64,000 nt of DNA, from assembly GCA_964430885.1 (NCBI GenBank), contig CAYSHM010000006.1, forward strand, positions 75,803 to 139,802, given 5' to 3'. Position 1 is the first letter of the stretch, and each line of letters begins with the position of its first letter. The position numbers and the translations under genes were made by a program. The DNA comes from an uncultured archaeon. Lineage in GTDB: Archaea; Thermoplasmatota; Penumbrarchaeia; JASLWR01. This document shows positions 2,792 through 19,260 of this stretch, in pieces. The notes below the pieces were generated by a model. It saw only the letters and a program-made list of their open reading frames with translations, made no database searches and was not told the DNA's origin.

Positions 2792-3421
2792 TTGTCAGAA
2801 GGATTACAGTTGAGGACATTTATATTCATCGATCAGATGCAGCCGCAATTTGCAGCATATCAGGCTACTGTCGGGAGAGGTTATCTGCCAGTATCAGGTA
2901 TGGCTGCAATATATATTGAAACTGCACCCGGAATGCCCATCAATCGGGTTACGGATCTGGCATTGAAATATACAAGTGTGAGACCGGCAGAACTAATAGT
3001 GGAGCGAGCTTTTGGAATGTTGGAATTCCATCATGAATCCCAGTCCGAGGTCAGAACAGCGGGAAAAGCCGTTCTAGATGGCCTAGGTTTGGAGGAGATG
3101 GACAGATATAAACCAAAGGTTGTGACCAATGAGATAATCAAGAAAATAGATGATTACCAGTCAATGATAATCAATCGTTCCTGGAGGGGTATGATGATCC
3201 TTCATGATCATTCTCTCTTCATTATGGAGACTCAGCCTGCCGCTTATATAACCTATGCCGCAAACGAGGCCGAAAAGGCAGCAGATATCAATATTGTCGG
3301 CATCAGGGCAGCCGGTGCCTTTGGCAGGCTGTACATCAGCGGTTGGGAATCCGATGTCAGGGCCGCAGCGGATGCCGCTACGACGGCCATAGAGGGTATT
3401 GACGGTAGGGATGATTGGTAG
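2792..3421 (+). CDS. BMC shell protein, tandem-domain BMC-T (EutL/PduB-like permuted type)
   Basis: Two BMC-like halves; second half 'AAYITYAANEAEKAADINIVGIRAAGAFGRLYISGWESDVRAAADAATTAIEGI' fits the BMC fold pattern. TTG start preceded by AGGAGG at 2776-2781. Call from recalled family motifs, not alignment. Confidence 0.55.
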   Translation: MSEGLQLRTFIFIDQMQPQFAAYQATVGRGYLPVSGMAAIYIETAPGMPINRVTDLALKYTSVRPAELIVERAFGMLEFHHESQSEVRTAGKAVLDGLGLEEMDRYKPKVVTNEIIKKIDDYQSMIINRSWRGMMILHDHSLFIMETQPAAYITYAANEAEKAADINIVGIRAAGAFGRLYISGWESDVRAAADAATTAIEGIDGRDDW

Positions 3422-4190
3422 TTCCGCCGACCTAGGTGTCTTTATGGATCCCGACCGTCTCAGGACCATCGTTCTGGAGCAGGTACGGAGATATTTTCAG
3501 AACGAGGGAATGGAGTTCATTCGATATGAAAAGGATTCCGAAGAAGGATCTAAAGGTATATTGATAGTGATAAACCGAACTGATCCATCAATGGACCTTT
3601 TATTCAGCCAGATAAACAATCTGGTATCTGCTGGTCATAACATCACATTGATGAGCACCTCCGAAGTGAGGGCAATATTGGGCCAGCAGGGCTATTGGTC
3701 ACTTGACCGGATCACCTACTTGTCTATTGATGATACCCGAAAGGTCAACATGAAAATTGACGAATATTGGTCCCTGCTATTTCCGGTTATAGGTTACTCC
3801 CTGGCCGGAGAGATATCAGCCTTAAAAGATACAAATCCATTGGCGGATTTGGCTTTGACGGCCCTGCGCAGTGGATTGGATGTCGGAGTGGCAGTGGATA
3901 CCCTTGAGACTGTAGGGAAGAAGGCTCGTAGGCCAAAGCTGATCTCCGAGTCCACCAGGATACAGAAGGGCTTATCGGGAATAGGCGTGAGATTGGTAAC
4001 CCTGGAAAATATGGTCAACGAGATGTCCTTTGACAAACGGAGGTTCACAGGCCGAGTGCTGACAGAGGATATAATAAACAGCTATATGTCCCGTGGCGTG
4101 TTCGATATCAATGTGGATGAAGATACTGTGATCACGCCTTTGGCAAGGGAAAGGGCAAGGGAGTTGAACATTCGAATAAATATCATTTAG
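3411..4190 (+). CDS. BMC-locus protein of unknown function; N-terminal amphipathic helix may be an encapsulation peptide
   Basis: ORF 3399..4190 with in-frame ATG at 3411 and 3444. N-terminus 'DPDRLRTIVLEQVRRYF' is amphipathic; C-terminal 'GRVLTEDIINS...VITPLARERARELNI' loosely resembles a segment of the N-terminal domain of the DeoC fusion at 11266. No family recognised. Confidence 0.45.
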   Translation: MIGSSADLGVFMDPDRLRTIVLEQVRRYFQNEGMEFIRYEKDSEEGSKGILIVINRTDPSMDLLFSQINNLVSAGHNITLMSTSEVRAILGQQGYWSLDRITYLSIDDTRKVNMKIDEYWSLLFPVIGYSLAGEISALKDTNPLADLALTALRSGLDVGVAVDTLETVGKKARRPKLISESTRIQKGLSGIGVRLVTLENMVNEMSFDKRRFTGRVLTEDIINSYMSRGVFDINVDEDTVITPLARERARELNIRINII

Positions 4191-4238
4191 AAATTGAATT
4201 AATAGGATCAGATATCATAGATCAAGGAGTGTAAGAAA

Positions 4239-4532
4239 ATGAAATTGTGCAGAGTGGTAGGAAATGTGGTAGCCACTGTCAAGGACCGAAACATCGAGTC
4301 CTTCAAGCTGATGATAGTACAACCGGTGGATTTCAAGGAACAGAAGCCCTATGGAGAGCCTCTAGTGGCAATAGATGCGGTTGGTGCCGGCCAAGATGAG
4401 CTGGTCCTGATAGTTCAGGGAAGTTCCGGCAGAATGACCGCTATAACTGACCAGAAACCGTCCGACTGTACGATAATGGCAATTGTGGATTTTGTGACCT
4501 TAAACGGTGAACAGACCTTTGCAAAACGGTGA
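4239..4532 (+). CDS. BMC vertex (pentamer) protein, EutN/PduN/CcmL family (BMC-P)
   Basis: 97 aa; 'MKLCRVVGNVVATVK...AIDAVGAGQDELVLIVQGSSGR...AIVDFVTLNG' matches the EutN/CcmL pattern. ATG at 4239 with AAGGAG upstream. Confidence 0.85.
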   Translation: MKLCRVVGNVVATVKDRNIESFKLMIVQPVDFKEQKPYGEPLVAIDAVGAGQDELVLIVQGSSGRMTAITDQKPSDCTIMAIVDFVTLNGEQTFAKR

Positions 4533-4550
4533 TCGAGGGAGGTTTTAATA

Positions 4551-5981
4551 ATGGAGATCAGGCAGGATCAGATAAATAATATTGTGGATGAGATAGTTAG
4601 AAGAGTGGAGCTGGATATGAGCTATGGGAAACCGAACATGGGGCCAGCCAAGCAGGGAGGCACTACAGGTATCTACAGCACTATTGACGAGTGTATTGAG
4701 AAGGCGAAGAAGGCAAGAAAGTTTTTGATGTCAATGTCATTGGATCAAAGGCAGAAGCTGATAGATGCCATGAAAGGGGAGATATTGCAGAACGCAGATC
4801 CTCTGGCCAAGCTTGCTGTTGAGGAGACTGGATTGGGTCGGTACAAGGACAAGGTGAATAAGAACATTCTGGCTGCGACAAAGACCCCTGGATGCGAGGA
4901 CCTGCAGACTGAAGCCCAGACGGGCGACGACGGTCTCACACTGTACGAGATGGGGCCCTTTGGAATTATAGCTTCCATAACACCTACTACCAATCCCACG
5001 TCAACGATCACATGCAACTCCATCGGCATGATCGCTGCTGGAAACGCTGTTGTGTTCAATCCCCATCCGAGGGCTACCAAGACCAGTCTGGAGACCATAA
5101 GACTGCTGAACCGGGGTATTCAGTCGGCAGGAGGTCCTACTGATCTTATAACAACGGTTAAAAAACCAACAATTGACACAAGCCAGGCTCTTATGAACCA
5201 TAAGGAGGTCAATCTACTCTGCGTAACCGGCGGTGAAGGAGTGGTGCATTACGGTCTTACCAGAGGGAAAAAATGCATTGCAGCAGGTCCGGGAAATCCT
5301 CCTGTTTTCGTGGACGATACCGCTGATCTGATACGGGCGGGCAGGGATATTGTGGACGGAGCCAGTTTTGACAACAATATCCTCTGTATAGCTGAAAAAG
5401 AGGTTCTGGTATTCGAAAATGTGGCAGATAGGCTAATCTCTGAGATGAGGAAACACGGTGCACATCTGGTCAGCGGAAAGGAGATAGACCGGCTGATAGA
5501 TTTGGTATTCAATGATCCCTCGGGAGAGATCCCCCTGGTGAACACCAAATGGGTGGGTCAGGATGCAGGTAAGATACTGCGGAACATAGGAATAACCGAT
5601 AAGTTCAATGCGCGATTGATCCTTGCCGAGGTTCCTCACGATCATCCATTCGTGCTGGCTGAAATGCTAATGCCAATACTGCCCATAGTTAGGGTGAAAT
5701 CCATAGATGAGGCCCTTAAAATTGGTCTGAGAGCCGAACATAGATTCAGACATACCGCAGCTATGCATTCCACAAATGTGGACAATATGACCAAGGTGGG
5801 ACGGGCAATGGAAACCACAATATTCGTTAAGAACGCTCCATCCTATGCAGGTCTGGGTTTTGGAGGTGAGGGATACTGCTCCCTTACAATAGCCGGACCA
5901 ACCGGTGAAGGAGTTACAAGGGCGAGGAATTTTGCCAGATTGAGAAGATGTACGCTCAAGGATTCATTCAGAATTGTGTGA
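4551..5981 (+). CDS. CoA-acylating aldehyde dehydrogenase (PduP/EutE-like) with N-terminal encapsulation-peptide-like helix
   Basis: 476 aa; catalytic-Cys region 'DNNILCIAEKE', 'GPFGIIASITPTTNPT'. N-terminal 'QDQINNIVDEIVRRVEL' amphipathic helix followed by linker. GAGGGAGG upstream. Confidence 0.85.
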   Translation: MEIRQDQINNIVDEIVRRVELDMSYGKPNMGPAKQGGTTGIYSTIDECIEKAKKARKFLMSMSLDQRQKLIDAMKGEILQNADPLAKLAVEETGLGRYKDKVNKNILAATKTPGCEDLQTEAQTGDDGLTLYEMGPFGIIASITPTTNPTSTITCNSIGMIAAGNAVVFNPHPRATKTSLETIRLLNRGIQSAGGPTDLITTVKKPTIDTSQALMNHKEVNLLCVTGGEGVVHYGLTRGKKCIAAGPGNPPVFVDDTADLIRAGRDIVDGASFDNNILCIAEKEVLVFENVADRLISEMRKHGAHLVSGKEIDRLIDLVFNDPSGEIPLVNTKWVGQDAGKILRNIGITDKFNARLILAEVPHDHPFVLAEMLMPILPIVRVKSIDEALKIGLRAEHRFRHTAAMHSTNVDNMTKVGRAMETTIFVKNAPSYAGLGFGGEGYCSLTIAGPTGEGVTRARNFARLRRCTLKDSFRIV

Positions 5982-6028
5982 ATAATAATCGATAATAAAT
6001 ATTTCAGTCCAGCAGATCAGGTGAAAAA

Positions 6029-7390
6029 ATGGCTTCATTGGGAACGGATATGGTAAGGAACTCGGGGATAATAGGTGCGGGTGGTGCAGGTTTTCCTACC
6101 CATGTCAAGCTGGCAGCTAAGGTTGATTGTGTAATAGCCAATGGTGCCGAATGTGAACCCCTTCTCAAGGCGGATAAGCAGCTCATGGAGCATTTCCCTG
6201 AAAAAATACTGGATGGTATGAAAGCAGCCATGGATATGACGGGAGCCCAGAAAGGTATAATAGCTCTAAAGAGAAAGTATGCGGATGCGGTGTCCTCCTT
6301 CAGAACTCGATTGGCGGATGCTGTGAACGGTAGATATGAAGGAATATCCATATTTGAACTTGAGAACTTCTATCCTGCAGGCGACGAACAGGTCATGGTC
6401 TATGAAGTGTTAGGACGGGTAATTCCCGAAGGCGCCATACCATTGTCAGCAGGTGTTGTTGTGGACAATGTGGGGACCCTGGCCCAAATATCGGAAGCCA
6501 TTGAAGGAAAAAATGTTACCCATCGGTGGGTAACGGTCACTGGTGAAGTGGCCTACCCAAAGACCCTTTACATCCCTATAGGTACTTCTATAGAAAAGAT
6601 GCTTGGATTGTGCGGGGGTCCGACAATAACCAATTACAGGATATTATCCGGAGGTCCCATGATGGGACGTCTAGTAAACCTTACCGATAGTGTTCTGAAA
6701 ACCACCTCGGGTATCATAGTTTTCCCGGCAGATCATTATGTTGTGAAGGCTAAAACCCGCCCGGTGGAAGTGAATGTTAGGTATACTTTAGCGGCATGCA
6801 TTCAGTGCAAAATGTGCACTGATGTATGTCCCAGATTCAATCTGGGTAAGTATGTATGTCCGGACAGTGTGATGAAAGGCATCGCTTACGGAATACTTTC
6901 AAAACCGGAGGATATGACCACCGCATTCCTCTGCGTTGAGTGCGGATTATGCACCCATTACGGATGCCCTATGGGTTTGGACCCCTGCGGTATGATGGGG
7001 AAGGTCAAATCCGAACTTATTTCCGAAGGTATGACGAACCCACATTCAAGGACGGATCTGTCTGCCAGGGAATACAGGCCTTTCAGAAAGGTTCCCCTAA
7101 AAAGATTGATGGCCAGGATGGATCTTTTGAGATATGATGTACCGGCACCCATGGAGCTGAAGGACCTATCGAAGGTTATTACAGAAGTGAATATCCCTCT
7201 TAAACAGCACATAGGCGCGCCTTCGAAACCTGTTGTGAAAGTGGGAGATCAAGTGAAGAAGGGTGAACTGATAGCAGATATTCCAAAAGGTTCTCTGGGG
7301 GCACGGTATCATTCCAGCATTAACGGTGAAGTAACAGGTGTGGATTCCTGCATCAGTATTAGAGCAAAGAAAATCGGAGGAATTGAATGA
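6029..7390 (+). CDS. PduS-like RnfC-family Fe-S flavoprotein (electron-transfer partner of PduT)
   Basis: 'GIIGAGGAGFPTHVKLAAKVDCVIANGAECEPLLKADKQLM' nucleotide-binding motif; two Cys clusters 'CIQCKMCTDVCP' and 'CVECGLCTHYGCP'; PduS-type C-terminus. Confidence 0.8.
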   Translation: MASLGTDMVRNSGIIGAGGAGFPTHVKLAAKVDCVIANGAECEPLLKADKQLMEHFPEKILDGMKAAMDMTGAQKGIIALKRKYADAVSSFRTRLADAVNGRYEGISIFELENFYPAGDEQVMVYEVLGRVIPEGAIPLSAGVVVDNVGTLAQISEAIEGKNVTHRWVTVTGEVAYPKTLYIPIGTSIEKMLGLCGGPTITNYRILSGGPMMGRLVNLTDSVLKTTSGIIVFPADHYVVKAKTRPVEVNVRYTLAACIQCKMCTDVCPRFNLGKYVCPDSVMKGIAYGILSKPEDMTTAFLCVECGLCTHYGCPMGLDPCGMMGKVKSELISEGMTNPHSRTDLSAREYRPFRKVPLKRLMARMDLLRYDVPAPMELKDLSKVITEVNIPLKQHIGAPSKPVVKVGDQVKKGELIADIPKGSLGARYHSSINGEVTGVDSCISIRAKKIGGIE

Positions 7391-7944
7391 GAGAGTCTAT
7401 AGGTCTCATGGAGTTCAACAGCATTGCAAAGGGTATTGAGGTGACGGATGTTCTTCTGAAGGCTTCCGAGGTGGAACTCATATTCTCATCGCCGGTGTGT
7501 CCTGGAAAGTATCTGATAATGATCTCTGGTGAGGTGGAGGCTGTTAAGAATTCACTGGGAAAAGGAGCCGACATATCGGATGGTTTCCTCATCGATCAAA
7601 GTGTAATACCTCAGGTTCATGAAAAGGTGTTCCCAGCCATAGCTGGGACCACACTGCCCGAGGTGATGGGGGCCATTGGTGTCATAGACTGCTATTCTTC
7701 GGTTTCGGCAGTAGTGGCAGCCGATAAAGCGGTGAAATCCGCCGATGTAGATCTGCTGGAGATTCGATTGGCCAGGGCGTTGGGAGGAAAGGCCTTTGTC
7801 ATAATAACAGGTGAGGTTGCCGATGTGAGGGCAGGTGTCGATAACGGAGTTGAGTCCATAAAGGAACACGGACTGCTGCTGGGCACAGTGGTAATTCCGT
7901 CCCCCCACCAGGACCTACTGGAAACGTTGATAGGATCGAGATGA
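7387..7944 (+). CDS. PduT-like tandem BMC-T shell protein with conserved Fe-S ligand Cys38
   Basis: 185 aa, two BMC domains; 'SIAKGIEVTDVLLKASEVELIFSSPVCPGKYLIM' parallels PduT '[34 protein letters not shown]' as recalled. Start ATG overlaps PduS stop (ATGA). Confidence 0.85.
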   Translation: MRESIGLMEFNSIAKGIEVTDVLLKASEVELIFSSPVCPGKYLIMISGEVEAVKNSLGKGADISDGFLIDQSVIPQVHEKVFPAIAGTTLPEVMGAIGVIDCYSSVSAVVAADKAVKSADVDLLEIRLARALGGKAFVIITGEVADVRAGVDNGVESIKEHGLLLGTVVIPSPHQDLLETLIGSR

Positions 7945-8041
7945 TCAGATCATAAATTCATATCACGATTAATTAAATTAATTAATTGATGAATAATTTG
8001 AAGAATATAATCAAGAAGATGAAAAATAGAAGTTGATTGAA

Positions 8042-8548
8042 ATGAGAATTTGCAGGGTAATAGGCAATCTGGTATCCACATGCAAGATACCTGATCACGA
8101 AGGTTTCAAGATACTGGCGGTTCGTGCTGTCGATCTTCACGGCAGAATGCATGGTGAGACCTTTCAGGCTATAGATTGCGCCCAGGCAGGTGTGGGTGAT
8201 TTTGTGCTCGTGATAGAGGAAGGAGGCTCCTGCAGTCAGGTGATGAGCGGAGTTAAGTCGCTAACCCCCAAGGGTGACCGGGTGGCAGTCAACAAGTCCA
8301 TTCTTGCTGTTGTGGATTATATTGAGGCTGATGGAGAGCTCAGAAGGCTGGAGCAGACAGCAGAGATGGAAGAGGATGGAGGAAAGAAAAAATTAAGAAG
8401 TACCAAGGTTAAAAGAAAGACCTCCAAGGCTACTGGAAAAAAGGGTAAAGAAAAAAAAAGTGAAAAAACGTCAGGAAAAAATTCCCGCAAACCTGCTAAA
8501 ACCTTGGCAACAAAGAAAGGCAAGGGCGGTAAGAAGAAGAAGGGTTGA
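8042..8548 (+). CDS. BMC vertex protein (EutN/CcmL family) with about 60-aa lysine-rich C-terminal extension
   Basis: 'MRICRVIGNLVSTCK...AIDCAQAGVGDFVLVIEEGG' BMC-P core, then tail 'GKKKLRSTKVKRKTSKATGKKGKEKKSEKTSGKNSRKPAKTLATKKGKGGKKKKG'. ORF-track start 8033 is TTG; first ATG at 8042. Confidence 0.8.
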   Translation: MRICRVIGNLVSTCKIPDHEGFKILAVRAVDLHGRMHGETFQAIDCAQAGVGDFVLVIEEGGSCSQVMSGVKSLTPKGDRVAVNKSILAVVDYIEADGELRRLEQTAEMEEDGGKKKLRSTKVKRKTSKATGKKGKEKKSEKTSGKNSRKPAKTLATKKGKGGKKKKG

Positions 8549-8554
8549 TAGATT

Positions 8555-9469
8555 ATGTCAGAAGACGAGCTCAGAAAGTTAGTAGAAAACATGGTTCGAT
8601 CCATGCTGGAATCCGGTTCTGTGGAGATACAGAAGGGAACTGCTCTAAGGACCCAGGGAGATATCTCAAGGCCTACCAACAATTATTTTAATGATCAGAT
8701 GGAGGGTAATGCCCGGTATGTGGTTGCAGCCAATTGGAAGATGAACATGACCACCATAGAGGCCAAGGAATTCGCTATGCAGATAAGGGCCTTAGGAGAG
8801 GAAATTTCCAATAGTAAAAGGGATGCAGTGGTCTGTCCTCCTATTTATTTGGCTCCTCTTCTGAAAACAGCGTTCATGGGGACGGGTATCCGGTTGGGCG
8901 GTCAGAATATGCACCATGAGACCAAGGGTGCTTATACCAGCGAGATATCGCCTCTAATGCTTAAGGATGCGGGTTGTCAATATGTGATAATTGGACATTC
9001 TGAAAGGAGACATATATTTGGTGAAAAGGACCATCATATCAATATGAAGGTGAGGTCAGCTTTCAATCATGGCCTTGTACCTCTTTTCTGCGTTGGCGAG
9101 ACCGAGAAGGAACGGGAGAGCAATGCTACCTTCAGGGTTGTCAGGAAACAATTGAAATTGGGCCTCTATAAGACAAGCTCCAAGCAATCCGGCAGGCTGA
9201 TAATCGGTTATGAACCGGTTTGGGCAATAGGCACTGGGAGAAATGCTACTCCGGCTGACGCCCAAAGGGTACATGCATTCATCAGGGAGGTTCTGACGGA
9301 GATCTACGATTTCCCCACGGCCAAGAATATCAGGATTCTCTACGGCGGAAGCGTTACACCTGATAATGCTTCAGGTCTTATAGCCAAAAAAGATATCGAC
9401 GGTTTCCTGGTGGGGGGTGCTTCTCTCACCGCTTCCAAGTTTATGAGCATAGCGGAGGTGTGCAAATGA
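8555..9469 (+). CDS. tpiA: Triosephosphate isomerase, bacterial type, with about 50-aa N-terminal extension (putative encapsulation peptide)
   Basis: 'AANWKMN', 'IGHSERR', 'YEPVWAIGTG', 'YGGSV' motifs. N-terminal 'EDELRKLVENMVRSMLE' amphipathic helix precedes the catalytic core. Confidence 0.85.
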   Translation: MSEDELRKLVENMVRSMLESGSVEIQKGTALRTQGDISRPTNNYFNDQMEGNARYVVAANWKMNMTTIEAKEFAMQIRALGEEISNSKRDAVVCPPIYLAPLLKTAFMGTGIRLGGQNMHHETKGAYTSEISPLMLKDAGCQYVIIGHSERRHIFGEKDHHINMKVRSAFNHGLVPLFCVGETEKERESNATFRVVRKQLKLGLYKTSSKQSGRLIIGYEPVWAIGTGRNATPADAQRVHAFIREVLTEIYDFPTAKNIRILYGGSVTPDNASGLIAKKDIDGFLVGGASLTASKFMSIAEVCK

Positions 9470-9945
9470 GCCAGGATATGAGGAAGATATTGATAGGTAG
9501 TGATCACGGGGGATTTGAGTTAAAGGAGATTATTAGACAGTTCCTCAAGGACCAGGGATACCGGGTTGTTGATTTTGGTTGCTATTCGCCGGACCCTGTT
9601 GACTATCCAGATATTGCCTTTTTGGTCTCTCAGGGGGTGTGTTCGAATCCTAATTCAATTGGTATAATGATAGATGGGGTAGGTGTTGCCAGTACAATGG
9701 TTGCAAACAAGATTCCCGGGATCAGGGCCGCCCTTTGCTGGAATCAGTTCAGCGCACACAATGCACGTGAGCACAACAATGCAAATATGCTCGTCCTAGG
9801 GGGTAGGGTAATCGGTGATATATTGGCCAGGAGCATTGTGAAGGAATTCCTGGAAACAGAATTTGCCGGCGGACGGCACGCACGGAGGGTAGACAAGATA
9901 ATGGCGATTGAAGCCAAATATCTGAGGTCTATTCAGGAAAAATGA
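9466..9945 (+). CDS. rpiB: Ribose-5-phosphate isomerase B (RpiB/LacAB family)
   Basis: 'KILIGSDHGGFELKE', 'MLVLGGRVIG', 'FAGGRHARRVDKI'. ATG at 9466 overlaps tpiA stop (ATGA); alternative ATG at 9478. Confidence 0.8.
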   Translation: MSQDMRKILIGSDHGGFELKEIIRQFLKDQGYRVVDFGCYSPDPVDYPDIAFLVSQGVCSNPNSIGIMIDGVGVASTMVANKIPGIRAALCWNQFSAHNAREHNNANMLVLGGRVIGDILARSIVKEFLETEFAGGRHARRVDKIMAIEAKYLRSIQEK

Positions 9946-10047
9946 GTTAAAAGTTAACAGAGTTAGGATAAATTTATTAGTTCAGTGTAATAATAATATA
10001 AAACTTAATAATATAGAGTTGAGAGACGAATCTTGAGGAGTGAACCA

Positions 10048-10335
10048 ATGTATATCGGTAAAGTAATGGGAACCGTGGTGGCCACAAGGAAGATAGATAC
10101 CCTTAAAGGGATCAAACTGCTCCTAATACAGCCCTTGGATGATGATATGAAACCCTCGGGAAGGTTACTGGTGGCCGGGGATGCCCAGGGAGATACAGGA
10201 GAAGGTGATGTGGTATATTTGGTCACCAAGAAGGAAGCCTGTTTCCCCTTCGGTGGTCTGACCCCCCTTGATCACGCTGTGGCGGGTTATATTGATGATT
10301 ATCATATTGAAGAATCTTTAAAAGAGGGGAAATAA
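10048..10335 (+). CDS. BMC vertex protein (EutN/PduN/CcmL family), third paralog
   Basis: 'MYIGKVMGTVVATRKIDTLKGIKLLLIQP...LVAGDAQGDTGEGDVVYLV'. ORF-track TTG start at 10033; first ATG at 10048 after GAGGAG. Confidence 0.8.
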   Translation: MYIGKVMGTVVATRKIDTLKGIKLLLIQPLDDDMKPSGRLLVAGDAQGDTGEGDVVYLVTKKEACFPFGGLTPLDHAVAGYIDDYHIEESLKEGK

Positions 10336-10640
10336 GCATAACATGGACACTGCGGACAACCATCCAAGGCTCTATTTACCTGGAAGAAATATTTGGACAG
10401 TAAATAATAATATAGGAATAAGGTAAGATTAGTGTGTTAATTTAATCCTGTTACCAGGATGTGAATTCATAATAGTATTGGATAGGGCATGGGTATGAGT
10501 AAAGGTAAAAAGCAATAGATGAAAAATTCGAAATCAGCTATTGAAATGTATAATCAATCAAAAATTATTGAGAAGTAGTAGTCAAGGATTATTACAATGG
10601 AGATACATTGAATCCAAAACAAATCAAGGAGGAAAAATAA

Positions 10641-10934
10641 ATGAGAGATCTACAGAAAATTGCATTGGGAATGATTGAGACAAAGGGAGAGATAGGAGCT
10701 ATAGAAGCTGCAGATGCCATGGTAAAGGCAGCCAAAGTGACCCTTATCGGAAAGGATTTCGTCGGCGGCGGCTATGTGTGCGTTATGGTCAGGGGAGAGG
10801 TTGGGGCTGTCAAGGCGGCAATAGACGCCGGTGGAGCCGCTGCAGCCAGGGTCGGAGAGCTTGTCTCAGTTCACGTTATTCCCAGGCCCCACGAGGAAGT
10901 AGAGGATGTTCTGCCTTCCATTGATAGGGATTAA
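10641..10934 (+). CDS. BMC hexamer shell protein (BMC-H, PduA/EutM/CcmK-like)
   Basis: '[26 protein letters not shown]...[33 protein letters not shown]' matches the canonical BMC-H pattern closely. AAGGAGG upstream. Confidence 0.9.
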
Positions 10935-11265
10935 AGTAATACTGCATTAAATTGTTATTTGCAGGGATGGGCTGAAATATTCGCCTGCTCCCTTAGAGAA
11001 CAGGATTTGCATTTGGAGATTTATCCTCAAAATAATAATGATATTCTTTTAGGAAGATCATCTGAATGTTTTATCCTGCAATTTACTCAATAGGATTAAA
11101 TCGAATTGATATCTATGGTGATCATGAAAGCAAAGGCCATATGTCAATTACTTCCAGATTGAAATGCGGGTAGTATTGTTACCTTTGATATCAAGATCCG
11201 GGATATGGAATGTATGGCCTAAACACCACGAAAAAATTCAAGAATAGTGATAATGAAGTGATACA

Positions 11266-12705
11266 ATGGAAAGGGAGGAAGCGATCAAAAGGATAACCGA
11301 AGAGGTTCTTGCAAGAATTAGGGGCGCATCTTCGGGTAATTCTTTGAATACCTCACAGGGATCTGCCGCGGATCAATCCGAAAAGGGACGGAGTGCACCT
11401 TATTTAGCCTCTGGGGGAAAATCCATTATTATGATACTCAGCGGAGACCGGACTATTGAGGATCTGAGAGAGGACATCAGTTCCATATGCAGTAGCCAGA
11501 AGGTTGAAATGATAGTGGTATCCGATTGGGCTCTTAGGTCCTTCAACATCTTTAAACTCAAGGGTTTAGCTCCTGGGATAAAACTGCTCCAGGAGGGGGA
11601 CATATTGGGCAGCAAGACAATATCAGACATCTTATCAGACGTTGACTCGGTCTATGTTCTCGACCTGGATATTCCCAGTGCTTCGCGTATTGCAGATTTT
11701 GCTCCAGTGCTGCCTGCTGAAAGGGTTATCACAGGGGCAATTATTTCCGGTAAAAGCGTTATCTGTTCACATGCACTTCTGAGCCCAATGGCAGGGGAGC
11801 TAACTCCTCCATGCGCCCGTGAGGCCATTTCCGCAGTTGAGAAGAAGCTCGTGGCCGTCGGTGTTGCCATGCTTGGTTCGGGGACTTCTTTCAGTGATAA
11901 TGAAGCAGTGGAACAGGCCCTAGCCCGCTGCCCGGCGGGTGAAGGAGAATGTATTGGATGCGGATTGTGCGTGAACCTGAACACAGCAGGCGTGGAGAAC
12001 ATCTTTTCAGCCGGAGCCCAGAGGATTAGTACGGCTACCGGATTGGATACCCCCAATCCAGATATGGCTCGTATGATAGATCACACGCTGCTGAAACCCG
12101 CTGCCACAGAGGATGATATCCGGGAGCTATGTGATGAGGCTAGAAGATACAATTTCGCTACGGTATGTGTTAATCCATCCCATGTAGCCCTTGCAGCAAG
12201 GGAGCTGAGAGGAACGGATGTTGGTATCACCACTGTCATCGGTTTCCCCCTGGGAGCAACAACCCATACCGCAAAGTCCATTGAGACCCGGGATGCAATA
12301 GCCAATGGCGCCAATGAGATAGATATGGTGGTTAACGTTGGCGCTCTGAAGGCTGGCAACGATGATCTGGTAAAAAGGGATATTGCGTCAGTGGTGAACG
12401 CTGCAGGCAATGATGCTATTGTCAAGGTGATTCTTGAGACCTCTCTGCTGAATGACGAGGAGAAGGTCAGGGGCTGCCTGCTCTCAAAGATGGCCGGGGC
12501 GGATTATGTGAAGACATCCACTGGTTTTGGTCCTGGCGGCGCTACCGTAGAGGATATCCGCTTAATGAGGCAGACTGTGGGCCCAGATATGGGGGTTAAG
12601 GCCTCTGGAGGGATCAGAAATACAGACGATGCCAATGCCATGCTTGAAGCAGGTGCTTCAAGGATAGGTGCTAGTGCTTCAGTTGCCATTGTTAAGGGCG
12701 CATGA
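11266..12705 (+). CDS. deoC: Deoxyribose-phosphate aldolase (DERA/DeoC) fused to about 265-aa N-terminal domain of unknown function with Cys cluster and encapsulation-peptide-like N-terminus
   Basis: C-terminal 'IDHTLLKP...VCVNP...[12 protein letters not shown]...VKASGGIR' are DeoC hallmarks. N-terminal '[15 protein letters not shown]' amphipathic helix; Cys cluster '[14 protein letters not shown]'. Confidence 0.85.
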
Positions 12706-12818: not shown

Positions 12819-14678
12819 ATGAATGAAAAAGACCTCCAAAGGGACGATGGTCCCGCTACAGGGAATACCATGGAAAATGAAGAGGAGTTTTCATACACTT
12901 CCGGTGAAATAACCGGCAAATCTCCCATGGAGCAAACTCTGGATCAAGGTCTTCAATTTCTCGAATACCTCCAAAAGCGGAAGGAAACATACAGGGCGGT
13001 CAAACTATATTTTCATAATGACATGGACGGTTTTGCTTCCTCACTTCTTGTGAACCATCTCCTGACAAAGATCGGTTATGAAATTCCTCTGGAGAACATA
13101 CACCCCTTGGCTCATGTCAACCTGAATAATGTGGCAATAGATGAACAGCATCTATTTTTCTTTGTAGATATACGGCCCCCTAGCTCAGCTTTCAAAGAAT
13201 CAAGTCTGGCGGGAGAGGATAGACCTTTCATGGAAAATGTTTTCTGTGTGGATCATCACACAACCCTGGATTCACCCCTTTCACCCCATGCGAATTTCTT
13301 TCTTTACAACTATGAGATCGATGATATTCTTCCATCCACTGCCACCTTCCTGATGTATTATCTTGTAATGCTTGAGAAAGGGATCAGGGGAACCTACGGT
13401 GCCCTCATGAGGGAATGGATGACGAACCCCCCCATGAACACAAGATATCTTCTGCTACAGGCCACCATTGCTGATCATCTTCATCTTCTGTCGGAAAAGC
13501 TACCCAATAATCCCCTGAGGTATCTATCCAACCTGCTTATTGAGGATATGGATGCCTATGTGCTCCTATCAATAACCACCTCACTGCTGCTGGGAGGGGA
13601 CGGCGGACATATGGATATGTTCAGGCAACTATATTCCGAAGCCCTGGGGAATATCAATCAGGAATTAATGGCCCAGAAATTAGAGAACAATCTTTCTCAG
13701 GTACTTTCGCTTTTTGAATTCGTGGATATTCTCATGAAGAAGCGTAAGGAATTCATCGATGATATGGCCAAGGATATGGATGGGGAGATCCAGAGAACAG
13801 AAGCTGGGATCAGCGGAATGACGGATACCCTGAATAACTATAACACCGCAGCCGATAAGATCAAGGAGGAACTCTCATTCCAGAATATAGCTATGGGGAA
13901 ACTGAAGGATCTTCGAAATGATTACATGGGTATCAGGGAGCAGATGACGCGTTTAGAGAACCAGATAGGTATTGAGTTGGGAAGGCTTGAAAAACAGAAA
14001 GTTCTCAGATACCATCTTGTGGCTGAAGGAGACATCAATTTATCAGTTTTCCTGCCACCCCAGAACAATGATCAGGTTAGAGGCATACTGTCATCACTTC
14101 TATTTTATCACGGTAATAACAACATCATCATAGAGGAGAAGACATCCAAGGCCGTGTGGAGTTCAAGGGGTTATGAGGGAAAGGAATTGGAAAGCTTCCT
14201 GACAACAGTATCGGTGGACATGGAGAAATTGATGGAACTGAAGGAACATCAGGAGGCGGTGGAGGAATTTAAGGGAGATCCAACCATAATTGAGAAGCTT
14301 GAATTGGATGAGAGGTCCCCTCCTTTGATATCTGTGGAGAACCGATATATCGGACAGATGGGTGGCAGGAGTAGGATATTCGGCGGTATCATTACCAGCA
14401 ATGTCACCCTTGATGCTAGCACTTTGGTTCAAGACAGAGGAGGTAATGAACTACAGTCCATACTTACGGTTCCTCACCAGCGGTTCTGGATATCAACTAT
14501 ACAAGCAATAAAGGAAAAATTCAAGGAGAGCCAGTGGTTCACAGTACAGGTGGAAGGGGGTGCAAGCTTGGGCGAGATACTCTCAGACCAGTGGGAGCTG
14601 CTGCTGATGCATTTCATGGGCAATAGGATGTCATACAGGATTTTTGAACTGAAAAGCAATGGTCAAGATGGCATCTGA
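12819..14678 (+). CDS. DHH-family phosphoesterase-like protein with central coiled-coil
   Basis: 'HNDMDGFAS' and 'VDHHT' resemble DHH motifs I and III of RecJ/NrnA-type phosphoesterases; rest unassigned. Confidence 0.45.
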   Translation: MNEKDLQRDDGPATGNTMENEEEFSYTSGEITGKSPMEQTLDQGLQFLEYLQKRKETYRAVKLYFHNDMDGFASSLLVNHLLTKIGYEIPLENIHPLAHVNLNNVAIDEQHLFFFVDIRPPSSAFKESSLAGEDRPFMENVFCVDHHTTLDSPLSPHANFFLYNYEIDDILPSTATFLMYYLVMLEKGIRGTYGALMREWMTNPPMNTRYLLLQATIADHLHLLSEKLPNNPLRYLSNLLIEDMDAYVLLSITTSLLLGGDGGHMDMFRQLYSEALGNINQELMAQKLENNLSQVLSLFEFVDILMKKRKEFIDDMAKDMDGEIQRTEAGISGMTDTLNNYNTAADKIKEELSFQNIAMGKLKDLRNDYMGIREQMTRLENQIGIELGRLEKQKVLRYHLVAEGDINLSVFLPPQNNDQVRGILSSLLFYHGNNNIIIEEKTSKAVWSSRGYEGKELESFLTTVSVDMEKLMELKEHQEAVEEFKGDPTIIEKLELDERSPPLISVENRYIGQMGGRSRIFGGIITSNVTLDASTLVQDRGGNELQSILTVPHQRFWISTIQAIKEKFKESQWFTVQVEGGASLGEILSDQWELLLMHFMGNRMSYRIFELKSNGQDGI

Positions 14679-14939
14679 TTTTCTGCACCTGAAATATGAT
14701 CACTTCACTTCGATAGCCTATCATCCAATGATATATTCCAATGAAAAATTTTAAAAATGATACACCTTTTCCACTTACAGAACCGAATAGGAGTTTTTTC
14801 GGGGATAATATGAACTAAAAAATGTTATACTTGGTGTAACATAAACATGGATTCATAGTGTATTGGTTTGATCAATCAAAGTGCTAAGGGGATTGAATTG
14901 ATCTTGGTGATCTCCCGAGGAGATACAAGAGGTGGATAG

Positions 14940-15827
14940 ATGAACATTGAGAACAAGTTATGGTTTGGAATCATAGTAGGTGCAGTTGTTTTGCTGATAG
15001 TTTCAGTTATTCTTTATGCTACATTCAAAGAGGAAAACGTTGAGGAAGGAAAGACCTCCATTCCTGTAATTCTAGAGGGTTATGAGATAGAGTACAAATA
15101 TACGGTCCGAATCGGCGGACCTAACGGACCGGTATATGATTCCAATATGGACAATATCATAAACTCATCTCTGGTTGAGAAAACGGTTTTCTATAATAAC
15201 TATGCTCAATGGCCGGAACGTTTCATAGTTGGTGAGCACCCGGCCGATGCGGAATTACCTTCCTTCAGCGATCATTTCATTGGACATGAGGAAGGGGACC
15301 ATTTCAATTTCGTTCTTTCGGGGGTGAGCCGTCTAGAATATAACGACAGTAAAAGGGTGGAAATACCTGTGAAGGAGAAGATACCTCTCTATGAGACAGT
15401 GAACAAAGAGCAGTTCAAATCATCGTTAGGAGCTGTGGATTTGAAGGTTGGTATGATATATAATCATGGTTTTTGGGGATGGGAAATTGAGATTTTTGAA
15501 TTTATCGACGAGAATAATATGACAATTTATCACAGACCTGAGATAGGTTACGAAATAGATGTTCTTCCCTGGTCTTCCGAAGTGAAGGATGTATCATCTG
15601 AAACGGGTTTCATAACTCTGAATCATGATCTGACAGATAAAGATCTTCTAAAGGGCCAGTTCTACCCCTTTGAATACACGGATTATTCTGACCATTTTGA
15701 TAATATGAACAATCCGGGTTACATCCAACAGCTTGGTCCGAATTATATAGTGATCGAGTTCAATGATGAACGCGCAGGTGCGGATATTTATTTTGATATA
15801 GAGATAGTGAGGATTCTGAATTCCTGA
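14940..15827 (+). CDS. N-terminally membrane-anchored protein, function unknown (possibly FKBP-like)
   Basis: N-terminal TM helix 'LWFGIIVGAVVLLIVSVILYA'; ORF with ATG start. Confidence 0.4.
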   Translation: MNIENKLWFGIIVGAVVLLIVSVILYATFKEENVEEGKTSIPVILEGYEIEYKYTVRIGGPNGPVYDSNMDNIINSSLVEKTVFYNNYAQWPERFIVGEHPADAELPSFSDHFIGHEEGDHFNFVLSGVSRLEYNDSKRVEIPVKEKIPLYETVNKEQFKSSLGAVDLKVGMIYNHGFWGWEIEIFEFIDENNMTIYHRPEIGYEIDVLPWSSEVKDVSSETGFITLNHDLTDKDLLKGQFYPFEYTDYSDHFDNMNNPGYIQQLGPNYIVIEFNDERAGADIYFDIEIVRILNS

Positions 15828-15839
15828 TGAGGTGATGTA

Positions 15840-16766
15840 ATGGCAAGGAAAAGAAGCGTGGACGGATCAAAAAGAGGAAAACACGGCGGAGACGCATCCA
15901 TGTTCGATGATATCGATGAGTACAGTATAAGGGAAGAGGTGAGGGGTTCGGTCATGAAGGAGTCATCCCGCAGAAAAGCCTTAATGCCTTATGTGGTTCT
16001 GGTACTTGTAATATTAGCAATAATAGGAGGGTATTTTGCCTACATGTATCTTATAAAGGAAGACAAGGATACACCTGCTTCTGATTTCAATGAGGATAAT
16101 TCCTTCATTGCAGATGTGGAGATAAAGGTAGAGACCAAGACCGATGGTGATGGAAGCCACAGCCCTTTTGATTACAGTATGCACAAGGTTGATCCTTCTA
16201 GGGGAACCCAATACCTGCTTTTGATCAAGAACAAGGGTGAAGAAAAGGATTCTTTCCGATTGACTGCGGACAATCCCAGCGGTTGGTCAGTCACCTTCGA
16301 AGGTGGTAATGTCATGACGGACATGTCCCCGGGGTACTGGGATTACAAGATAATGACCATAAAGGTGACTGATTCAAGTGATTCCTATAGGGACATAAAG
16401 ATTACAGCTACTTCATTATCAGACCCGTTAGTAAAGGACAGTATTATCACCAAGAACACAGTGGAATCTCTTCCTCCTGGCGAAGCAGATCTGAACAATG
16501 ATCCGGCTAAGGTAGATTACAATTTGGTATATTACGGCGGAGGAACTTCCGGGGAGAAGGGCTGGTATCATAATCAGGGTAGCGAGTTCGAGGCCACAAA
16601 TGTTATTCAGGGGTTCAAGGAGGCCATCAAGGGAATGAGAGTAGGCCAGACCAAAGTAATAGAGGTTCCACCTGAAAAGGGATATGGTCCGGATGATGAG
16701 AAGCATGTTGGCGGCCGTCCCCTGGTCTTCGAGATCACAATGCTGGATGTCAACACCAATAATTAG
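15840..16766 (+). CDS. Membrane-anchored protein with C-terminal FKBP-type peptidyl-prolyl isomerase domain
   Basis: TM helix 'VVLVLVILAIIGGYFAYMYL'; C-terminal 'FKEAIKGMRVGQTKVIEVPPEKGYG' FKBP-like. Confidence 0.55.
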   Translation: MARKRSVDGSKRGKHGGDASMFDDIDEYSIREEVRGSVMKESSRRKALMPYVVLVLVILAIIGGYFAYMYLIKEDKDTPASDFNEDNSFIADVEIKVETKTDGDGSHSPFDYSMHKVDPSRGTQYLLLIKNKGEEKDSFRLTADNPSGWSVTFEGGNVMTDMSPGYWDYKIMTIKVTDSSDSYRDIKITATSLSDPLVKDSIITKNTVESLPPGEADLNNDPAKVDYNLVYYGGGTSGEKGWYHNQGSEFEATNVIQGFKEAIKGMRVGQTKVIEVPPEKGYGPDDEKHVGGRPLVFEITMLDVNTNN

Positions 16767-17009: not shown

Positions 17010-17288
17010 ATGAAGTTGCCAAGAAGGATAAAAACGTACTGTCCGTTCTGCAAGGTCCACACGGAGCATAAGGTGGAAAATGTGAAGAAGAAGAAGGCTT
17101 CTGAGCTGAAATGGGGACAGAGACGTTTCAGAAAGGTAATGAGAGGGTACAGGGGATTTCCCAGACCCAAACCCGAAGGCAGGGAAAAACCAACCAAAAG
17201 AATATATCTACGAAAAAGGTGCACCCAGTGCAATAAAGCTCATCAGAGCAAATGTTTCAGATCAGGGAAATTTGCGTTCAAGGATTGA
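17010..17288 (+). CDS. rpl44e: Ribosomal protein L44e (eL42)
   Basis: '[15 protein letters not shown]...KRCTQCNK' zinc-ribbon ribosomal protein pattern; archaeal/eukaryotic-specific. Confidence 0.85.
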
Positions 17289-17293
17289 TAATT

Positions 17294-17509
17294 ATGCATA
17301 TACAAAAACAGACCAAGTATTTGGATACACCTAACAGCAAATACTTAAAGGTGAAATGTCACGACTGCATGAACGAGCAGGTAATATTCAACAAGGCCAG
17401 TAATGTTGTGAAATGTTTGGTTTGCGGGGCTACTTTAGCAGAACCCACCGGCGGAATGGCCAAGGTAAAGAGTAAGATATTGGCCGTTGTTGACAGAAAG
17501 TACAGATGA
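17294..17509 (+). CDS. rps27e: Ribosomal protein S27e (eS27)
   Basis: '[36 protein letters not shown]' matches the S27e C4 zinc-finger pattern. Alternative ATG at 17252. Confidence 0.8.
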
Positions 17510-18297
17510 AGGTAGAGATTTATATGGCAAACCGATTCGAATGGCCTTTGGAAGATGAACTGGTTGTATGTACCGTAAAAAGGGTTCTTGATTATGGTGC
17601 TTTTGTTACCCTGGATGAATATCAGGATAAAGAAGGCTTCATCCATATTGCTGAGATCGCTTCCGGTTGGGTCAAATATATCGGCAACCATATTAGAGAA
17701 AAGGCCAAGGTTGTTACCAAGGTCCTTCGTGTGGATCCTCGAAGGGAGCATATAGATCTCTCCTTGAAGAGGGTCAATGACCACCAGAAGAGGGCAAAGA
17801 TACAGGAGTGGAGAAGAAATACCAAGATGCTGAAGCTCTTCGAACTTCTCTCAAAAAGAATAGAGAAAGAGCTGAAATTGTGTTATAGAGAGTTTGGTTT
17901 CTCACTGATGGAGAAATACGGCTCCCTTTATAACTCCTTTGAAGCGGTATCTATCAATAACAATGTCCTTGAAGAGGACGGTTTCCAGGGAGACTGGGTG
18001 GAGCATTTTGTTGATATTGCACGGACCAATATAACTCCCCCCTATGTATCCATTTCAGAGAAAATATACCTATTCTCTCCTGCTCCCAATGGAGTGGAAC
18101 ATGTTAAGGAAGCTATAGGTTCGGTGATCAAAAATTCCGAGGAAAACGTCAAGATCACCTATGTAGGGGCGCCGGAATACCGGATCTCCGTCATCGCCCG
18201 CGATTATAAAAATGCGGAATCAGTAATGGCTAATACTGCAGGAGATGTTATTGATAAGATAACATCAACGGGCGGTTATGGTTCATTCGATAGATAA
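17506..18297 (+). CDS. eif2a: Translation initiation factor 2 alpha subunit (aIF2-alpha)
   Basis: S1 domain '[41 protein letters not shown]'. ATG overlaps the S27e stop. Confidence 0.8.
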
Positions 18298-18323: not shown

Positions 18324-18503
18324 ATGAAGCATTTTTTATTCAAGTGTTCAGAATGTTCAGTCTATACTATGGACCAACAATGCCCAGAATGCGGTAATAC
18401 AGCTTGGGCTGTGGAACCCCCTCGTTTTTCACCACAGGACCGTTGGGGGAAATACCGCAGAAAGTTATTACTTAACTTGGAGAATGATGAGAATGATGGA
18501 TAG
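18324..18503 (+). CDS. nop10: H/ACA ribonucleoprotein component Nop10 (59 aa; absent from ORF track)
   Basis: Hand translation from ATG 18324: MKHFLFKCSECSVYTMDQQCPECGNTAWAVEPPRFSPQDRWGKYRRKLLLNLENDENDG, stop TAG 18501-18503. Zinc ribbon plus 'PPRFSP' motif; canonical position after aIF2-alpha. Confidence 0.7.
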   Translation: MKHFLFKCSECSVYTMDQQCPECGNTAWAVEPPRFSPQDRWGKYRRKLLLNLENDENDG

Positions 18504-19260
18504 TGTGATCTTCCAAAAGGAAAATGTTCCCGATTGCCAGAATGCGGTATTGATAGAGGGATTACCGGGAATAGGACGGGTAGGTCAGATAGCAGCAGAT
18601 TATTTGGTGGAAAAATTGAATTCGGAAAAATTTATCACAATTTATTCACCCTTCTTTCCTCCTCAGGTTATGGTTGATGATGAGGGTCTGGTTCATCCCA
18701 TGATTCAGGAAATGCATCACTGCATCACTAAATCAGGACGTCATTTACTGTTCTTAACCGGAGACTATCAGGGTTTGACTGGCGAAGCCCAGTATGCTCT
18801 CAGTCATGAAGTATTGAAACTCGCAAGCTCCATGGATGTGAAAGAGATCATAACTCTAGGTGGTTACGGTGTTAGAAAGATACTTGAAGAACCCAGGGTA
18901 CTCGGTGCTGCCACTTCAAATGAAATTGTCTCCAAAATGGAGGAATTTCAGGTTGTGTTCAAAAGCGAACACCCCACGGGCGGTATTGTAGGAGCATCCG
19001 GTATATTGCTTGGATTGGCTCCGCTGTTTGATCTTGAAGGGGTTTGCCTAATGGGTGAGACCCATGGTGCCTATCCAGATCATATTGCTGCAAAGATGAT
19101 ATTGAAGGTGCTGGATGCATATCTGGATCTGGATCTTGTTTATGATGATCTGGATGAACCCTCTCCCGCCCTGGAGGCCCTGAAGGCCCAGATAAAGGAA
19201 ATGGATCAGGAAGCAGAAAAAGGTTACAAGGAAGAACAAGAACTGAACTATTTTGTATGA
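18484..19260 (+). CDS. PAC2-family proteasome assembly chaperone
   Basis: 'NAVLIEGLPGIGRVGQIAADYLVEKL' N-terminal motif. Start uncertain (ATGs at 18484/18493/18496); overlaps nop10 3' end. Confidence 0.65.
   Translation: MMRMMDSVIFQKENVPDCQNAVLIEGLPGIGRVGQIAADYLVEKLNSEKFITIYSPFFPPQVMVDDEGLVHPMIQEMHHCITKSGRHLLFLTGDYQGLTGEAQYALSHEVLKLASSMDVKEIITLGGYGVRKILEEPRVLGAATSNEIVSKMEEFQVVFKSEHPTGGIVGASGILLGLAPLFDLEGVCLMGETHGAYPDHIAAKMILKVLDAYLDLDLVYDDLDEPSPALEALKAQIKEMDQEAEKGYKEEQELNYFV

Follow-up and report, generated by a model that had tools for sequence, protein, structure and literature searches.

Until a preprint of 2025, microcompartments were, to our knowledge, regarded as exclusively bacterial organelles. 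The subject of this report is a cluster of genes for a bacterial microcompartment (BMC) shell and its enzymes, found in a 64,000-nucleotide window, the whole stretch of DNA that was analysed (contig CAYSHM010000006.1, positions 75,803-139,802). The established paradigm for organelles of this kind is the Pdu/Eut metabolosome, with PduP/EutE, the PduS-PduT pair and PduL. In a full-text literature search a single paper proved directly relevant (Du et al., bioRxiv, November 2025; PMC12747264); it reports 'archaeal microcompartments' (AMC) of the sugar-phosphate-utilization (SPU) type in 66 of 111 Hodarchaeales genomes, traces their origin to uncultured Myxococcota, and shows that the Hodarchaeales shell proteins assemble in vitro and in E. 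coli. The deoxyribose-phosphate scheme considered below was proposed there for AMC, with the role of the isomerase RPI called unexplored. The same paper records such operons from Thermoplasmatota (order JASLWR01) and from the SpSt-1190 lineage, where they have an additional BMC-Tdp and lack a phosphotransacylase (PTAC); those of JASLWR01 are also short of one BMC-H. This non-Asgard case receives a brief mention, and the evolutionary argument of the paper rests on Hodarchaeales-specific features.

Twelve consecutive genes of the same direction occupy positions 2792-12705 of the plus strand of the window, as defined by the list of open reading frames (ORFs) and by Pfam and NCBIfam scans (Table 1). 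A preliminary description of this DNA had counted ten to eleven; all the shell genes that it named are present, and each of the six scores above its Pfam gathering score. The shell set comprises one BMC-H, one BMC-Ts and one BMC-Tdp (PF00936) together with three BMC-P (PF03319). Interleaved with the shell genes are those for cargo enzymes, which include the deoxyribose-phosphate aldolase (PF01791), CoA-acylating aldehyde dehydrogenase and RpiB-family isomerase by which SPU loci are recognized, as well as their pairing of a PduS-like NADH dehydrogenase with an Fe-S BMC-Ts. The phosphotransacylase of such loci (PduL, PF06130) has no Pfam match in the locus. What is established directly is the full complement of shell proteins and enzymes, the archaeal nature of the host and the pattern of inheritance. 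The locus is very likely a genuine, vertically inherited, chromosomal operon for an SPU-type microcompartment in an uncultured marine archaeon, of old bacterial origin and serving deoxyribose-phosphate catabolism.

The composition of the locus (additional BMC-Tdp, one BMC-H, no PTAC) corresponds to the description of the JASLWR01 variant. Also shared with that variant are an archaeal host, the flavoprotein-aldolase fusion, the acylating aldehyde dehydrogenase (AldDH), the metabolosome NADH dehydrogenase (MNdh), RPI, the protein labelled 'DUF', three BMC-P, a BMC-Ts with the CPGK motif, and the affinity to Myxococcota-type bacterial loci. The preliminary description held BMCs to be described from bacteria only, a belief that is out of date: archaeal ones, including those of Thermoplasmatota, appear in PMC12747264. 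The phenomenon is thus already described, briefly and in preprint form, and the version of this particular lineage very probably with it (PMC12747264). The difference from the JASLWR01 account is a lysine/arginine-rich tail on the BMC-P protein P2, a feature presented in the main text as a Hodarchaeales innovation. A P2 tail outside Hodarchaeales, the paralogy of the 248-residue protein discussed below, and the Cys-to-Asp replacement in RpiB were not found in that main text. Three diverged relatives of the window (L086, L090 and L093) carry the same locus in the same gene order, followed by the same downstream genes, with aldolase fusions 53-60% identical to that of the window; L090 retains a second BMC-H.

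The Hodarchaeales AMC of types I and II resemble the locus in their enzyme core, the flavoprotein-aldolase fusion and the lysine-rich tail on the pentamer that follows BMC-Ts, and type II also has the triosephosphate isomerase (TPI). They differ in having two or three BMC-H, no BMC-Tdp, and both PTAC and citrate synthase, with a class II aldolase in type II. The window shares the tail and the fusion with Hodarchaeales AMC, but neither their full shell and enzyme composition nor, judged by the database labels of relatives, their host. With the Pdu/Eut systems the locus has in common, at the level of genes, an aldehyde-generating enzyme and an acylating aldehyde dehydrogenase within a BMC-H/T/P shell, as well as a PduS-like flavo-iron-sulfur protein paired with a PduT-like BMC-T carrying a pore cysteine. 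The locus departs from these systems in its signature enzyme, a deoxyribose-phosphate aldolase where they use a B12 or glycyl-radical enzyme, in lacking both alcohol dehydrogenase and PduL, and in encoding two sugar-phosphate isomerases.

Table 1 Genes of the microcompartment locus and archaeal genes of the same window.
Feature	Position	Strand	Evidence or remark
BMC-Tdp, CsoS1D/CcmP type, tandem BMC domains, double-stacking gated-pore class	2792..3421	+	Pfam BMC 32.7 bits
248-aa accessory protein ('DUF'): N-terminal amphipathic helix, flavoprotein-fold-like domain, C-terminal ITPLAR-E-A-ELGI motif	3444..4190	+	profile comparison
BMC-P vertex pentamer P1	4239..4532	+	Pfam EutN_CcmL 96.1 bits
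CoA-acylating aldehyde dehydrogenase, N-terminal encapsulation-peptide-like helix	4551..5981	+	Pfam Aldedh; NCBIfam PRK15398 655 bits (cut-off 403)
PduS-like MNdh: FMN site, two 4Fe-4S motifs, C-terminal RnfC-type barrel domain	6029..7390	+	Pfam, NCBIfam
BMC-Ts, PduT type, pore cysteine motif PVCPGKY	7387..7944	+	Pfam 2 x BMC, 146.6 bits
BMC-P vertex pentamer P2, lysine-rich predicted-disordered C-terminal tail	8042..8548 (alternative start 8033)	+	Pfam EutN_CcmL 52.2 bits, residues 4-95
Bacterial-type TPI, 55-aa N-terminal extension with amphipathic helix	8555..9469	+	Pfam TIM 296.5 bits, residues 56-302
RpiB-family sugar-phosphate isomerase	9466..9945	+	Pfam LacAB_rpiB 182 bits; NCBIfam rpiB equivalog 160.7 bits (cut-off 138.65)
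BMC-P vertex pentamer P3	10048..10335 (alternative start 10033)	+	Pfam EutN_CcmL 65.6 bits
BMC-H hexamer, sole canonical one in locus	10641..10934	+	Pfam BMC 93.2 bits
Fusion, 479 aa: encapsulation helix, linker, EpiD-like flavoprotein-fold domain, four-Cys motif, class I deoxyribose-phosphate aldolase	11266..12705	+	
619-aa DHH/RecJ-like protein	12819-14678	+	order kept in L086, L090, L093
295-aa protein	14940-15827	+	order kept in L086, L090, L093
FKBP	15840-16766	+	order kept in L086, L090, L093
L44e	17010-17288	+	Pfam
S27e	17294-17509	+	Pfam
aIF2alpha	17506-18297	+	Pfam
Nop10	18324-18503	+	Pfam
PAC2	18484-19260	+	Pfam
Cbf5 with DKCLD and PUA domains	47167-48174	-	Pfam

The first gene of the locus, which the preliminary description had read as a EutL/PduB-like BMC-T, is assigned to the double-stacking BMC-Tdp class because its product matches HO-5816 of Haliangium ochraceum (E 3e-67), CcmP (E 2.6e-62) and CsoS1D (E 3.6e-57) in the PDB over its full length, an overall range of 3e-67 to 4e-57. 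Precomputed Pfam annotation gives CsoS1D_N and BMC, and the NCBIfam CcmP model scores 256 bits, under its equivalog cut-off of 340. Unlike these three proteins, the BMC-Tdp of the window is the first product of an archaeal, catabolic SPU operon and stands where the related bacterial loci have PTAC. The PduT-like reading of the second BMC-T holds: the protein matches 3nwg (E 2.9e-47) and PduT itself (3n79, E 2.2e-38), and its PVCPGKY segment, which contains the iron-sulfur motif CPGK, is identical in the alignment to 3nwg. The BMC-H protein is 81-83% identical to those of the archaeal relatives and 70-74% identical to those of two bacterial loci introduced below. The non-coding gaps around its gene are unusually long (10336-10640, 305 bp; 10935-11265, 331 bp); the relatives have a much shorter gap before BMC-H (58-96 bp), and one of 102-294 bp after it. 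An Rfam scan of the gaps beside BMC-H gave no match, and Rfam, tRNA and sigma-70/terminator scans yielded nothing informative; the dosage of BMC-H may be set by an internal promoter or terminator within the gaps.

Among the enzymes, the aldehyde dehydrogenase is closest in the PDB to chains 5jfl (E 1e-139) and 4c3s (E 8e-134), which we take to be microcompartment-associated acylating aldehyde dehydrogenases. The PduS-like protein contains the Pfam domains Complex1_51K, SLBB, Fer4_17 and RnfC_N, scores 249.6 bits against NCBIfam rnfC (cut-off 245.95), and has RnfC chains as its top PDB matches. Its sequence reads as an FMN motif, GAGGAGFP, and two motifs of the CxxCxxCxxxCP type, CIQCKMCTDVCP and CVECGLCTHYGCP. 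The top PDB matches of the triosephosphate isomerase are chains of the bacterial/eukaryotic form of about 250 residues, e.g. 1b9b and 1btm. The aldolase domain forms the C-terminal half of the 479-residue fusion and exceeds the deoC equivalog cut-off (287 bits; cut-off 117). Among solved deoxyribose-phosphate aldolase structures, those from Geobacillus, Streptococcus suis and Bacillus halodurans share 63-66% identity with this domain, and that of Aeropyrum pernix shares 37%. On reading the sequence, the KTSTGF motif, which presumably supplies the Schiff-base lysine, is intact, and the fusion also has four invariant cysteines (C222, C229, C232 and C235). An AlphaFold2 (AF2) model of the fusion, with a mean predicted local distance difference test score (pLDDT) of 80, places a helix at residues 3-21 and a disordered linker at residues 22-49. 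The aldehyde dehydrogenase, TPI and the fusion are each predicted to begin with an amphipathic helix within the top 1% of hydrophobic moments for the protein, followed by a linker; in the aldehyde dehydrogenase this helix has the highest moment of all. No match to three PduL proteins or to class II aldolase queries was obtained by tblastn in the window or in the relatives' loci.

The RpiB homolog has IDGVG in place of ICGTG in the alignment to 3he8, with aspartate at the position of the cysteine that, following the RpiB literature, we take to be the catalytic base. All sixteen SPU-locus sequences compared, archaeal and bacterial (including L006, L008, L010 and L091), have this Cys-to-Asp replacement. 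Their motif is IDG(V/A/F/I)G, compared with ICGTG in characterised RpiB, such that the threonine is likewise replaced, by valine, alanine, isoleucine or phenylalanine. The RpiB subfamily of SPU loci may catalyse something other than ribose-5-phosphate isomerisation.

The 248-residue protein, for which gene callers place the start at the ATG at 3444, has no Pfam or NCBIfam match. By profile-profile comparison (hhalign probability 99.5%, E 8.6e-23) it aligns with the N-terminal domain of the aldolase fusion, which identifies it as a paralog of the flavoprotein-fold domain fused to the aldolase. The relation is visible by this type of comparison only, as BLASTP of the protein against the aldolase N-terminus gave no match. 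A profile of the flavoprotein-like domains found no match among PDB sequences, and Pfam Flavoprotein was weakly detected in 4 of 32 homologs. Archaeal and bacterial SPU loci have a homolog at the corresponding position, and the one in L091 has a weak match to TIGR02536 'eut_hyp' (E 6e-10). The protein evolves fast, with 31-36% identity among the archaeal lineages. Its AF2 model, built from three sequences, reached a pLDDT of 44.

The host domain is assigned to Archaea because of the L44e-S27e-aIF2alpha-Nop10-PAC2 marker cluster, which begins 4.3 kb downstream of the locus. These markers and Cbf5, all of which the preliminary description had recognized, score above the Pfam gathering scores. 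A bacterial contig was considered and rejected, as the archaeal markers are on the same contig. Exact-sequence look-ups retrieved the locus together with the markers on single contigs of independent assemblies, which differ in sample and assembler; the junction is contained in Logan SRR8062321 (51.9 kb), JGI 3300007511 (151 kb) and JGI 3300007510 (99.7 kb). The 619-residue, 295-residue and FKBP proteins follow the locus in all four archaeal lineages (the window and its three relatives), with 33-60% identity. S27e, aIF2alpha and PAC2 are also found downstream in L086 and L093, with L44e and a TBP gene in one. Across the lineages, shell and enzyme proteins are 53-85% identical (the 248-residue protein left out) and flank proteins 33-82%. 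Locus and flank yield one and the same quartet topology, with 453 and 365 of 500 bootstraps, respectively. Relative synonymous codon usage of the locus correlates with that of the flank at r = 0.90, and tetranucleotide usage with that of the rest of the window likewise at r = 0.90, other 5-kb pieces of the window giving 0.86-0.96. These figures bear out the earlier impression that the composition resembles the flanks. The likeness claimed for the start signals stands in part: Shine-Dalgarno-like motifs occur in both regions, but they precede 10 of the 12 genes in the locus, compared with 7 of 31 in the flanks. This excess may reflect a long operon with operon-internal starts rather than foreign origin.

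It could be argued that the contig is an assembly or binning chimera in which a bacterial microcompartment operon has been mis-joined to archaeal DNA, as the operon is of bacterial type and its Shine-Dalgarno-like motifs are commoner than those of the flanks. However, the same junction recurs in the independent assemblies, the three relatives carry the locus followed by the same archaeal genes, locus and flank share one quartet topology, and the locus cannot be told from the rest of the window by its codon or tetranucleotide usage. For these reasons a chimera is extremely improbable and, like a recent transfer, is excluded for practical purposes. The locus is judged from these comparisons to predate the split of the four archaeal lineages.

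The assignment of the host to a Thermoplasmatota lineage is made with moderate confidence and is based on the database labels of relatives rather than on marker phylogeny. The best named Cbf5 match, at 59% identity, is labelled 'Candidatus Therm...' (MDP6155588.1, MDP7265881.1), and it is followed by named matches at about 50-53% that mostly carry the label 'Thermoplasmata archaeon'. Clustering at 90% identity places the L093 aldolase with a fragment labelled 'Candidatus Thermoplasmatota archaeon' (MDP6156688.1, MDP7266400.1). The Cbf5 and aldolase accessions share number blocks, which suggests that they come from the same two genomes. A Hodarchaeales (Asgard) host, with the window as one of the 66 loci of PMC12747264, would explain the lysine-rich P2 tail and the aldolase-flavoprotein fusion, both of which are stressed for Hodarchaeales in that paper. 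Such a host is nonetheless very improbable: by their labels, the closest named relatives of Cbf5 and of the aldolase belong to Candidatus Thermoplasmatota and Thermoplasmata, the presence of BMC-Tdp with one BMC-H and neither PTAC nor citrate synthase is the composition of JASLWR01 and not of Hodarchaeales, and no Asgard-typical eukaryote-signature domain was found among the ORFs scanned.

Bacterial SPU loci for comparison with the Thermoplasmatota locus were supplied by a scan of a genome collection with a profile of the aldolase fusion, in which the list of matches was swamped by ordinary aldolases. At least two full-length matches to the fusion protein were obtained, with 44-46% identity, in metagenome-assembled genomes (MAGs) labelled 'Deltaproteobacteria bacterium' (L006, MAG AB_03_Bin_195; L008, MAG Meg22_46_Bin_104). 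No archaeal genome is among the matches listed. Both bacterial loci have the gene order PTAC-DUF-P1-AldDH-MNdh-Ts-(H)-P2-TPI-RPI-P3-H-FlavDERA, to which L006 adds a class II aldolase, and the window has the same order from DUF to the aldolase fusion (DUF-P1-AldDH-MNdh-Ts-P2-TPI-RPI-P3-H-FlavDERA), with the full-length flavoprotein-aldolase in common. They differ from the window in beginning with a PduL-type PTAC, in the terminal class II aldolase of L006, in having no BMC-Tdp within 10 kb, and in having no tail on P2. The archaeal loci, in contrast, carry the BMC-Tdp gene where the bacterial loci carry PTAC, and contain no class II aldolase. Among the loci compared, the nearest BMC-Tdp proteins are those of Chloroflexota SPU loci (44-52% identity).

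In a neighbour-joining tree of 1212 concatenated columns, the four archaeal loci are monophyletic (200/200) and form a group with L091, L006 and L008 (200/200), apart from the SPU loci of Chloroflexota, Elusimicrobia and Halanaerobiales. An old bacterial origin is supported because the gene order matches that of the two 'Deltaproteobacteria' MAG loci, and the operon appears to descend from an old transfer of a bacterial locus of this type. The earlier proposal of an old, ameliorated transfer from bacteria is thus upheld by the bacterial-type enzymes, the L006/L008 gene order, the synteny of the relatives and the matching composition. L091 (GCA_041890195.1, JBEEQD010000007.1, 1604-11404) is a further SPU locus, with 47-75% identity, that lies nearer to the archaeal loci than do L006 and L008. 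It has PTAC and four BMC-H, and no BMC-Tdp. Should L091 prove archaeal, it would be relevant to the question of whether another archaeon was the source of the Thermoplasmatota locus.

The tail of P2 (~8348-8545) comprises 66 residues, of which 23 are lysine and 3 arginine, with a net charge of +19 and a pI of 10.6. The 168-residue product is identical in all the independent assemblies. The P2 proteins of L086, L090, L093 and the bacterial loci have no tail and end directly after the core, and the nearest representative (64% identity) in a library of 1.8 billion proteins likewise has no tail; a similar tail is found on one unrelated BMC-P (P0347). According to the main text of PMC12747264, K/R-rich P2 tails are a Hodarchaeales innovation not seen in BMCs, and the Hodarchaeales tail binds DNA and RNA. 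The occurrence of such a tail in a Thermoplasmatota-affiliated genome would most simply represent an independent gain, and by analogy the tail probably binds nucleic acid at the vertices. A P2 tail outside Hodarchaeales weakens the claim that the feature is special to ancestors of eukaryotes, and supports a tie between these compartments and nucleic-acid scavenging. The four archaeal P2 proteins also share an eight-residue insertion, around SLTPKGDR, that is found in none of the bacterial P2 homologs compared and that appears to be a lineage signature of the archaeal P2 clade.

Judged by its enzymes, the compartment probably consumes deoxyribose phosphate. The mechanism is modelled on the Pdu/Eut paradigm and on the scheme of PMC12747264. 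BMC-H, BMC-Ts and BMC-Tdp would tile the facets and P1-P3 would cap the vertices, with the aldolase, the aldehyde dehydrogenase, triosephosphate isomerase and the 248-residue protein recruited via their N-terminal amphipathic helices. Deoxyribose 5-phosphate from nucleoside breakdown would enter and be cleaved by the aldolase to glyceraldehyde 3-phosphate and acetaldehyde. The acylating dehydrogenase would convert the trapped acetaldehyde, with CoA and NAD+, to acetyl-CoA and NADH, and the PduS-like protein would reoxidise the NADH, the electrons leaving via the Fe-S centre in the BMC-Ts pore. Speculatively, acetyl-CoA and CoA may be exchanged through the gated BMC-Tdp pore with a cytosolic enzyme; the sole prompt for this proposal is that BMC-Tdp stands where PTAC stands in the bacterial loci. 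At the vertices, the lysine-rich P2 tail would, like its Hodarchaeales counterparts, bind nucleic acid. The recycling of CoA is a gap in the scheme because the window has neither PTAC nor citrate synthase.

Several points weigh against the assignment as a deoxyribose-phosphate compartment of a Thermoplasmatota archaeon. The compartment of this organism is known from genes alone, and we know of no direct demonstration of the substrate of any SPU compartment. The RpiB homolog lacks the canonical catalytic cysteine, and phosphotransacylase, citrate synthase and class II aldolase are absent from the window scans. As to the host, the ranking of Cbf5 matches past the top one (~50% identity) separates phyla weakly.

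A real compartment with another substrate or direction, such as a different sugar phosphate or the condensation of acetaldehyde with glyceraldehyde 3-phosphate, is unlikely, although it would accommodate the aspartate in all 16 SPU-locus RpiB sequences compared, the RPI role called unexplored in PMC12747264, the two flavoprotein-fold domains and four-Cys motif that have no role in the simple scheme, and the failure to find a CoA-recycling enzyme. The identity of the aldolase domain to characterised deoxyribose-phosphate aldolases (63-66%) and its passing of the deoC equivalog cut-off speak for the cleavage of deoxyribose phosphate. The dehydrogenase, closest to the presumed microcompartment enzymes 5jfl and 4c3s, points the same way, and an aldehyde-trapping shell suits the catabolic direction.

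A different doubt is whether the locus has decayed into a relic, inherited but unable to build compartments, or has had its proteins put to some other use. The single canonical BMC-H, the loss, in comparison with the bacterial loci, of PTAC and class II aldolase, and the fact that the locus is known here as sequence would be in keeping with this. Such decay is improbable, as the twelve reading frames are intact in all four lineages, the shell proteins are more conserved (63-85%) than the neighbouring housekeeping proteins (53-82%), and the CPGK, FMN and Fe-S motifs are intact, as is KTSTGF with its presumed Schiff-base lysine.

The window provides independent assembly-level confirmation that a complete locus is stable in archaeal chromosomes outside Asgard, and documents long vertical inheritance there. 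A tentative extension, which we regard as possible but on balance doubtful, is that the Thermoplasmatota compartment is an independently re-engineered archaeal organelle and not a copy of the Hodarchaeales one. Three points make up this case. Entry would have preceded the divergence of at least four lineages (aldolase 53-60% identical, housekeeping proteins 53-82%), with one chromosomal site since then. PduL would have been exchanged for a gated BMC-Tdp pore, through which acetyl-CoA could reach a cytosolic ADP-forming acetyl-CoA synthetase, an enzyme that is typically archaeal. Lastly, in the species of the window a lysine-rich tail, nucleic-acid-binding by analogy, would have evolved separately on the same vertex paralog as in Hodarchaeales. 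If this last point is true, archaea would have adapted their shells to capture DNA more than once, and the trait would be no Hodarchaeales speciality with a link to eukaryogenesis. Handles on SPU biochemistry are offered by the P2 tail, the RpiB with its Cys-to-Asp replacement, the pair of flavoprotein-fold domains, the absence of PTAC and the addition of a gated BMC-T.

The three genes that directly follow the locus (12819-16766) mark a conserved genomic site, and their part in the compartment system is putative. The 619-residue protein has a weak Pfam DHH match (E 6e-4) and a weak NCBIfam match to archaeal RecJ (E 4e-7) that is below the cut-off. A nuclease beside a deoxyribose-phosphate compartment would be suggestive. 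At 46-49 kb from the locus, an amidohydrolase-NUDIX fusion (58671-60323, plus strand) and a dCTP deaminase/dUTPase-like gene (61334-61852, minus strand) could feed deoxynucleotide breakdown.

Elsewhere in the window, two tandem paralogous genes on the minus strand (28167-32378 and 32546-36757) encode proteins of 1403 residues that are 37% identical over their full length. Both have lamin-tail domains, a Big_5 domain and, at the C-terminus, an acidic-tailed membrane anchor, and are probably surface proteins. A 1304-residue protein (54610-58524, minus strand), of a size unusual for an archaeon, has an N-terminal multi-bladed WD40 propeller. The product of 63197-63991 (minus strand) combines a response-regulator receiver domain with a weak match to a longin domain (E 0.005) that follows it.

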